The translations under genes were made by a program, and so were the position numbers. Below the pieces are notes generated by a model. It was not told the DNA's origin. It ran no database searches and worked only from the letters and a program-made list of their open reading frames with translations. From Escherichia coli (GTDB taxonomy: Bacteria; Pseudomonadota; Gammaproteobacteria; Enterobacterales; Enterobacteriaceae): a stretch of 476 bases of DNA. Every line of letters begins with the position of its first letter. Positions within the stretch are counted from its first letter, which is position 1. This document shows, piece by piece, positions 1 through 476 of the stretch. Location of the stretch: NCBI RefSeq assembly GCF_003334255.1, contig NZ_QOWU01000233.1, one strand, 5' to 3'.

Positions 1-72
1 TTGTAAATCCCCGTGAAGGCAGATGCGTGCCAGTGGCGGTGACGCCAGACAGAATGCGTTCGTCGTTGCCAT
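1..72 (-). CDS. I: Tail assembly protein I homologue, N-terminal 24 codons only; start codon at 72..70, continues past the window edge. It overlaps the 3' end of K in a different reading frame.
   Basis: ATG at 72..70 on the minus strand, followed by an open frame to position 1 encoding MATTNAFCLASPPLARICLHGDLQ. The ARICL(H/Y)GDLQ segment matches my recollection of the lambda gpI N-terminus (MAATHTLPLASPGMARICLYGDLQ...). A purine-rich Shine-Dalgarno-like sequence lies upstream. The out-of-frame overlap with K mirrors the arrangement in lambda. Confidence 0.75.
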   Translation of the reverse strand, partial: MATTNAFCLASPPLARICLHGDLQ

Positions 73-476
73 TTTTCAGAATACCTCTCCCGTTTGCTCA
101 GTTGTTCAGGAATATGGTGCAGCAGCTCGCCATCACCACAGTAAATGGCGGCATGATTCGGCACCGATGAACCAAAACAGCACAGCAGCACATCGCCCGG
201 TTGTGCTGATGACAACGGCACCTGATACAGCCCTGTGGCCTCCATATTGTCCAGGTAAAGGTTCTGACCGTTGCACCACCAGTCATCCTCACGGTGAAAA
301 TCCGGCATATCAATGCCTGCCAGATGGTATGCATCCCGGAACAGGGTGTAACAGTCCGTCACCCCGTGCGCAAAGCGCCGTCCGGTCAGGTGCGGAACGC
401 AGCGGAATTTGTGAATGTCACCCCGGCTGACCAGCCACCAGGGCAGTGCGCTTTTTATCTGCAGCCGCCGGTCAGC
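1..476 (-). CDS. K: Tail assembly protein K homologue, C-terminal NlpC/P60 (C40 family) peptidase domain; partial at both ends. The N-terminal MPN/JAB domain and the stop codon both lie outside the window.
   Basis: Manual translation of the reverse complement starting at 476 gives an uninterrupted frame: ADRRLQIKSALPWWLVSRGDIHKFRCVPHLTGRRFAHGVTDCYTLFRDAYHLAGIDMPDFHREDDWWCNGQNLYLDNMEATGLYQVPLSSAQPGDVLLCCFGSSVPNHAAIYCGDGELLHHIPEQLSKRERYSEKWQRRTHSVWRHRHWHASAFTGIY. It has the NlpC/P60 hallmarks: a catalytic Cys in the DCYTLF context (codon 353..351), a His in the NHAAIYCGDG context (155..153) and a downstream His pair (119..114). From memory it is near-identical to the C-terminal half of phage lambda gpK. 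There is no stop across 158 codons. Confidence 0.9.
84..91 (-). promoter_or_regulatory. Putative Shine-Dalgarno / ribosome-binding site for gene I, embedded in the K coding sequence
   Basis: Minus-strand sequence GGGAGAGG at 91..84 is followed by an 11-nt A-rich spacer (TATTCTGAAAA) and then the ATG at 72..70. It contains a GGAG/GAGG core complementary to the 16S rRNA 3' end. The spacing is at the long end of the typical range. Confidence 0.45.

Follow-up and report, generated by a model that had tools for sequence, protein, structure and literature searches.

The window, a 476-nt stretch of DNA that was analysed over its full length, contains most of the peptidase gene K and, opening inside K in another reading frame, the first part of the ubiquitin-like gene I (Table 1). 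Reverse-complement frame 1 was open over all 158 codons, and its product, ADRRLQIKSALPWWLV...RHRHWHASAFTGIY, was assigned to PHROG 30, 'minor tail protein' (E 7e-98). The residue numbering of K was taken from the K gene of the E. coli SW070917 prophage, which lies at 5764-6507 of that locus (L001), with the window matching at 6001-6476. The I frame, counted from its ATG at 72-70, provides 24 codons, MATTNAFCLASPPLARICLHGDLQ, before leaving the window at position 1, and lambda I reads MAATHTLPLASPGMARICLYGDLQ at the equivalent position. An earlier note on this DNA, made from the sequence alone, had described two reading frames on the minus strand, and translation together with comparison to lambda gpK and gpI placed both exactly there. 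That note had also described the window as the K-I junction. The overlap of the two genes does begin inside the window, but the K stop was found ~30 nt (10 codons) past position 1 in 94/94 close relatives, leaving the junction incomplete.

Table 1. Features of the window and of related loci. Positions refer to the window unless a locus is named.
Feature	Position	Strand	Basis and remarks
Tail tip assembly gene K, internal part, residues 80-237 of 247 aa	1..476	-	Translation; lambda gpK identity; PHROG 30; neither start nor stop inside
Asp81 codon, last ligand of the JAB/MPN+ motif H-x-H-x7-S-x2-D	471..473	-	H68, H70, S78 and D81 invariant in the 11-sequence K alignment
NlpC/P60 (C40) papain-like peptidase domain of K	42..383	-	PF00877, fragment residues 32-145, model 1-105 of 105, E 2.1e-13
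Catalytic Cys codon, TD-C-YT, C121	351..353	-	Invariant column in the 11-sequence K alignment
Catalytic His codon, PN-H-AAIY, H187	153..155	-	Invariant column in the K alignment
His-His pair, LL-HH-IP, H199 and H200	114..119	-	H199 invariant, H200 nearly invariant
Recombination breakpoint between two K allele families	about 236..246		Mismatch map against L011-type and L001-type alleles
Shine-Dalgarno-like purine-rich GGGAGAGG	84..91	-	11 nt upstream of the I ATG; also codes for the conserved K-R-E-R of K
ATG start of tail assembly gene I	70..72	-	-1 frame relative to K, inside the K Lys-Trp codons (AAA TGG)
I codons 1-12 MATTNAFCLASP, lambda-type N-terminal extension	37..72	-	Missing from distant homologues; pLDDT 59; 5/12 residues differ from lambda
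I codons 13-24 PLARICLHGDLQ, start of the ubiquitin-like (MoaD/ThiS-type beta-grasp) domain	1..36	-	Pfam, PHROG, homologue starts, AF2
Beta-grasp strand 1, I codons 14-19	33-16	-	AF2 strand at pLDDT ~95
Inconsistent I start	window 1-72; L001 6405-7085; L105 776-1348	- (window)	
Small genes in phages without the K/I overlap	L098 1950-2174 and 2854-3033; L097 2070-2195; L100 2540-3028		

Relation to lambda and to E. coli prophages

The window aligned by blastn to lambda 14369-14844 with 86.2% nucleotide identity (E 1e-160). At the protein level, 143/158 residues of K were identical to lambda gpK (90.5%, 15 substitutions), as were 16/24 residues of the I start, with 8 different. The claim that both frames match gpK and gpI at near-identity was therefore right about the frames and overstated as to the degree, whereas the difference singled out in the same place, ARICLHGDLQ against ARICLYGDLQ in lambda, was real. 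E values of 1e-160 for lambda and of 0 for hundreds of lambdoid phages and for 4366/5426 complete E. coli genomes show that the match is far beyond chance. The BLAST comparison with lambda and Enterobacteriaceae that the earlier note had proposed thus led to lambdoid phage tail genes. That the window is phage lambda itself is refuted: the genes, the frames and the 103-nt overlap geometry are the same, but the nucleotide identity falls short of the ~95% or more of species-level near-identity to Lambdavirus lambda, and 15/158 K and 8/24 I residues differ. A lambda-like phage or enterobacterial prophage had been suggested instead of lambda, and this suggestion held, the best matches being E. coli prophages, metagenome contigs, and PhiR12 and Stx phages.

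Among the 68 ungapped nucleotide differences between the window and lambda, 52 fell on third codon positions of K, which indicates that K is a protein-coding frame under purifying selection. The same substitutions bear on a plus-strand ORF of 135 aa (23-430, ATG), the longest complete ORF listed in the window, which could be read as a genuine gene on the strand opposite K. GC-rich coding sequence often has long ORFs on its antisense strand. In this case the substitution pattern tracks the K frame on the opposite strand, the ORF had no PHROG match and no promoter-like site was found for it, and the probability that it is a gene is practically negligible. Scans of the window for Rfam families, repeats, promoters and terminators were all negative.

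The complete E. coli genomes with the segment carried a median of 3 copies, and up to 14, with a best identity of 96.0%. Matches to phages comprised 220 records with at most 93.7% identity (PhiR12 phages, Stx-converting phages and BP-4795), and the closest sequences overall were two metagenome contigs (97.9% and 96.4%). Mapping of mismatches in the sense of K revealed only 3 between positions 1-235 and the L011-type allele and 2 between positions 236-476 and the L001-type allele of SW070917, and each of these two K alleles was strongly divergent in the opposite half. The window thus reads as a recombinant of known K alleles, of the kind that is usual in the mosaicism of lambdoid prophages. A 71-mer across the breakpoint had no exact match in IMG/VR or in the GTDB species genomes (one genome per species), and it matched two metagenome contigs, those with 97.9% and 96.4% identity. 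A 42-mer from the window was present at 13 IMG/VR loci, which were overall only 91-92% identical, and the exact allele combination of the window was absent from every collection searched. The search for related loci returned only close relatives (94-98%); distant K/I junctions were examined one at a time.

The order tape measure (H)-M-L-K-I-J is annotated in the SW070917 prophage and in lambda, and it was also present in a metagenome contig (L003, from gene calls and Pfam) and in a human-gut contig (L103, from the ORF layout). In every related locus examined, these four, L and M lay upstream and I and J downstream of K, which for the minus-strand K of the window would mean higher and lower plus-strand coordinates, respectively, as the earlier note had expected. 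In SW070917, which is the closest complete E. coli genome, J is truncated and followed by an IS4 transposase (L001 7340-12067), and this prophage is probably defective.

If the window stemmed from the decayed remains of a cryptic prophage, or from an element derived from a phage tail (an F-type tailocin, for instance), this would fit with the J gene cut by IS4 in this closest genome, with the many copies of the segment in E. coli, a good number of which reside in defective prophages, and with the presence of gpK and gpI homologues in F-pyocins. However, the K frame is intact over its 158 codons, the catalytic residues are all present, the I start is intact, and the window is 90-94% identical to inducible Stx and PhiR12 phages; as for tailocins, the Pseudomonas modules are far more distant. 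We regard an origin from such a non-functional element as possible but unlikely. Taken together, the window is very likely an unremarkable segment of the tail-tip assembly operon of a lambda-like prophage or phage, carried on the minus strand, from E. coli or a close relative. The lambdoid K/I region is a textbook tail-tip assembly region and is already known: its sequence dates back to 1982, an analysis of its domains followed in 2006, and cryo-EM showed the structural outcome in 2023-2025.

Peptidase domains of K and the ubiquitin-like domain of I

The NlpC/P60 domain of K lies complete inside the window, with full coverage of the PF00877 model. Its Cys-His-His residues C121, H187 and H199 (351-353, 153-155 and 117-119) are all encoded in the window and are invariant in the K alignment. 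We take C121 to be the catalytic residue on the basis of what is established for the NlpC/P60 family, and the H199/H200 pair probably supplies the remaining polar residue that completes the triad. The JAB domain, by comparison, is represented in the window by D81 only, and its remainder lies upstream, outside. Relatives with 95-96% nucleotide identity carry a full Prok-JAB, and in full-length 247-aa K relatives Prok-JAB is found at residues 3-105, followed by NLPC_P60. A search of NCBIfam gave only sub-threshold matches for K and no family for I. Within the same overall explanation, gpK is very likely a non-structural factor of tail-tip assembly that combines two peptidases, a JAB/MPN+ metallopeptidase and an NlpC/P60 cysteine peptidase.

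The I protein was analysed through the long-form I of SW070917 (L001 6405-7085), whose first 24 residues are equal to those of the window. PF06805 (Lambda_tail_I) matched this protein at residues 15-97 (model 3-83 of 83, E 7.6e-16), and the PHROG 32 match on I begins at residue 13. Distant full-length I homologues (35-47% identity), retrieved from 1.84 billion representative proteins, repeatedly aligned with their residues 2-5 to query residues 14-17. Alignment with MAFFT showed that these homologues start 1-4 residues before strand 1, with M-x-x-V-x-L-H/Y-G-x-L opposite LARICLHGDL. An AF2 model of I based on 61 sequences had a mean pLDDT of 84, with strand 1 formed by residues 14-19 and low confidence for residues 1-10; a single-sequence AF2 prediction of full-length I (mean pLDDT 51) had been dropped for this alignment-based model. 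Residues 14-33 were modelled with confidence as a strand-helix-strand that opens a MoaD-like fold, and Foldseek retrieved MoaD, SAMP1, CysO, Urm1 and ubiquitin with the model as query (probability 1.00, target TM 0.69-0.76). The N-terminal domain of I was thus recovered as a beta-grasp fold, of which the window codes for strand 1 only, most of the domain lying outside. We conclude that window positions 36-1 are real coding sequence for the start of the ubiquitin-like domain. Also outside the window, the beta-grasp domain is followed in I relatives by a Gly-rich segment, with G96 and G101 nearly invariant, and the C-terminal domain of I aligns to the lambda gpI chains of PDB 8iyk and 9e7m.

The start of I and its overlap with K

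The I ATG of the window is equivalent to the lambda I start at 14773 (lambda I is annotated at 14773-15444). A TGA lies one codon ahead of it in the I frame, and between this TGA and ARICLHGDLQ it is the only ATG, GTG or TTG, both in the window and in 94/94 close relatives. In lambda gpI, residue 14 is a further in-frame Met (GMARICLY), whereas the window has a CTG-Leu codon there, so that the upstream ATG is the sole canonical start in the window allele. The MA... N-terminus is kept in I homologues of Salmonella and Citrobacter. Conservation of the ATG is partly forced by the invariant Lys-Trp of K and hence is weak evidence when taken alone. The purine-rich GGGAGAGG may act as the ribosome-binding site of I, with a spacing that is longer than optimal, and since the K stop is downstream of the I start, ribosomes presumably initiate on I internally, inside K. 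Of the 12 substitutions relative to lambda in the first 72 nt of I, 8 fell on I first positions, which indicates that the 12-residue extension is poorly conserved as protein; in the AF2 model, residues 1-12 are probably disordered. We conclude that the extension (window 72-37) exists because the nearest usable start sits there.

The overlap of K and I measures 103 nt in the relatives and in lambda alike, and its first 72 nt lie inside the window. Third-position diversity of K fell ~6-fold, from 0.151 beyond the overlap to 0.029 and 0.025 within it, and the overlap was the least diverse 34-codon stretch of K (0.016 vs a minimum of 0.048 elsewhere), values that could partly reflect recombination history, since the sequences compared are related and mosaic.

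This collapse of K synonymous diversity across the whole overlap argues against a reading in which K alone codes in the window, I starts at a GTG that overlaps the K stop (193 aa), and the 24-codon I frame is a matter of chance. In favour of that reading, 'C40 family peptidase' is the sole RefSeq/PGAP annotation of the matching segment in the best 20 E. coli matches, I is placed at L001 6504-7085, a resequenced lambda record also starts I at GTG, and the 193-aa form of I is abundant (P0132, 4540 members); the poor conservation of the first 12 I residues is in keeping with it as well. However, the short form of I would cut ~20 residues from the Pfam domain, and strands 1 and 2 with them, distant I homologues begin exactly at the position of strand 1, and the confidently modelled residues 14-33 form the MoaD-like opening. 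The different starts chosen by gene callers, at least five in number, reflect uncertainty and provide no evidence for the short form. We therefore consider it improbable that K alone codes here, and retain the ATG inside K as the start of I.

The long overlap itself might be functional, either by setting the K:I ratio through elongating versus initiating ribosomes or by letting ribosomes slip by -1 now and then and so make a K-I fusion, but we judge this highly improbable. At window 76-84 on the minus strand, GAAAAATGG holds the K codons GAA-AAA-TGG with a run of A, where tRNA-Lys, on slipping by -1, would bring the ribosome precisely to the I ATG; in lambda these codons read GAC-AAA-TGG, and the A-run is not conserved.

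Database proteins in which the C-terminal part of K is fused to I were observed as well (P0117, P0127, P0138, P0199, P0215 and the family phrog_28576). Their frame switches vary, with RRTH/PLASPG in two lambda-type entries, HRAW/ARICLY, FTGI/QRFG and one internal deletion (the slash marks the switch). Programmed frameshifting from K to I was rejected as a general mechanism because the junctions differ, the fusions are mostly singletons and the A-run is missing in lambda. The database fusions are probably indels or assembly errors.

Proposed processing, annotation and known systems

Iyer, Burroughs and Aravind predicted in 2006 that the JAB domain of K, and perhaps NlpC/P60, would release the ubiquitin-like domain of I by a cut after its terminal glycine (PMC1779556). 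It has been reported that gpK is needed for assembly and is undetected in virions by mass spectrometry, and that the part of gpI resolved in virions is limited to residues 134/135-223, which form a trimer plug attached to the C-terminus of gpH (PMC10721106, PMC12617516). The F-pyocin homologues PA0640 and PA0639 give the same picture as gpK and gpI of lambda. The C-terminal domain of gpI thus becomes a trimeric plug in the lumen of the tail tip, where it grips the tape measure by its C-terminus. In the mechanism proposed here, the gpK peptidases would, while the tip is assembled, cleave the ubiquitin-like domain off gpI behind the conserved Gly-rich stretch that ends the beta-grasp. Such cleavage of I by K would explain the absence of K and of the N-terminal half of I from virions. 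In the accessible literature, we found no experimental demonstration of I cleavage by K.

The length of I is given inconsistently. Gene callers produce forms of 226, 223, 210, 204, 197 and 193 aa. In lambda NC_001416, I has 223 aa and starts inside K, whereas PGAP and some phage annotators give 190-193 aa with a start at the K stop, and forms of 197, 204 and 210 aa occur in thousands of E. coli entries. A 2020 review gives gpI 190 residues, and the cryo-EM papers number it to 223 (PMC10721106). The I start is called differently among thousands of E. coli prophages, and the short calls leave the ubiquitin-like domain without strands 1 and 2.

A further discrepancy was found in K. The classic lambda reference (NC_001416/J02459, about 14266; about 1767 in L002) is missing one G, with GAGGC-TATTT versus GAGGCGTATTT. 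The extra G is present in the resequenced lambdas LC730321.1 and PV340536.1 and, by match length, in DE3, HK629/630 and the imm21/imm434 derivatives. Without this G, the ATG at 14133 further upstream is no longer in frame, and K is consequently annotated with 199 aa. With the extra G, lambda K has 247 aa and a complete JAB domain, of which the classic annotation loses the greater part (48 residues of K in all). Both annotation errors affect the modelling and cloning of K and I for tests of the unproven idea that the deubiquitinase-like peptidases of K process I. The window is of little importance as a discovery, and the useful by-products of its analysis are those concerning the annotation of the I start and the length of lambda K.

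Among known systems, lambda gpK (TAPK of Iyer et al. 2006; 'C40 family peptidase' in RefSeq) shares with the window the catalytic residues and, judging from the related loci, the order of JAB and then NlpC/P60 and the place between L and I, the window being a recombinant allele with 15 substitutions in 158 residues. Lambda gpI (TAPI; PF06805) shares the ATG inside K and the 12-residue extension, followed by strand 1 with ARICL[HY]GDLQ. E. coli lambdoid prophages and the Stx and PhiR12 phages are closer still (90-96% nucleotide identity), with an identical I N-terminus, MATTNAFCLASPPLARICLHGDLQ, and the gene order expected for the window; the window differs from them by joining the 5' half of one K family to the 3' half of another.

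The same two proteins are found in HK022, the T1-like phage Sd1, Serratia, Mannheimia and Pseudomonas siphophages and the F-pyocins (PA0639/PA0640), with the same roles, a peptidase that acts in assembly and is missing from the particles and a plug protein seen only in its C-terminal part, but without the long overlap. In HK022 and the Mannheimia phage, a moron separates K from I (HK022 gp20 and a Mannheimia hypothetical protein, respectively), in the Serratia phage K and I abut, and in Sd1 they overlap by 20 nt. Sd1 also carries an HNH homing endonuclease between I and J. The I proteins of these phages (HK022, Sd1, Serratia and Mannheimia) lack the N-terminal extension. The lambda-type overlap, in contrast, rules out insertions between K and I. 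The 103-nt overlap is thus not a general feature of the K/I pair but is characteristic of the lambda-type module found in prophages of E. coli, Salmonella and Citrobacter.
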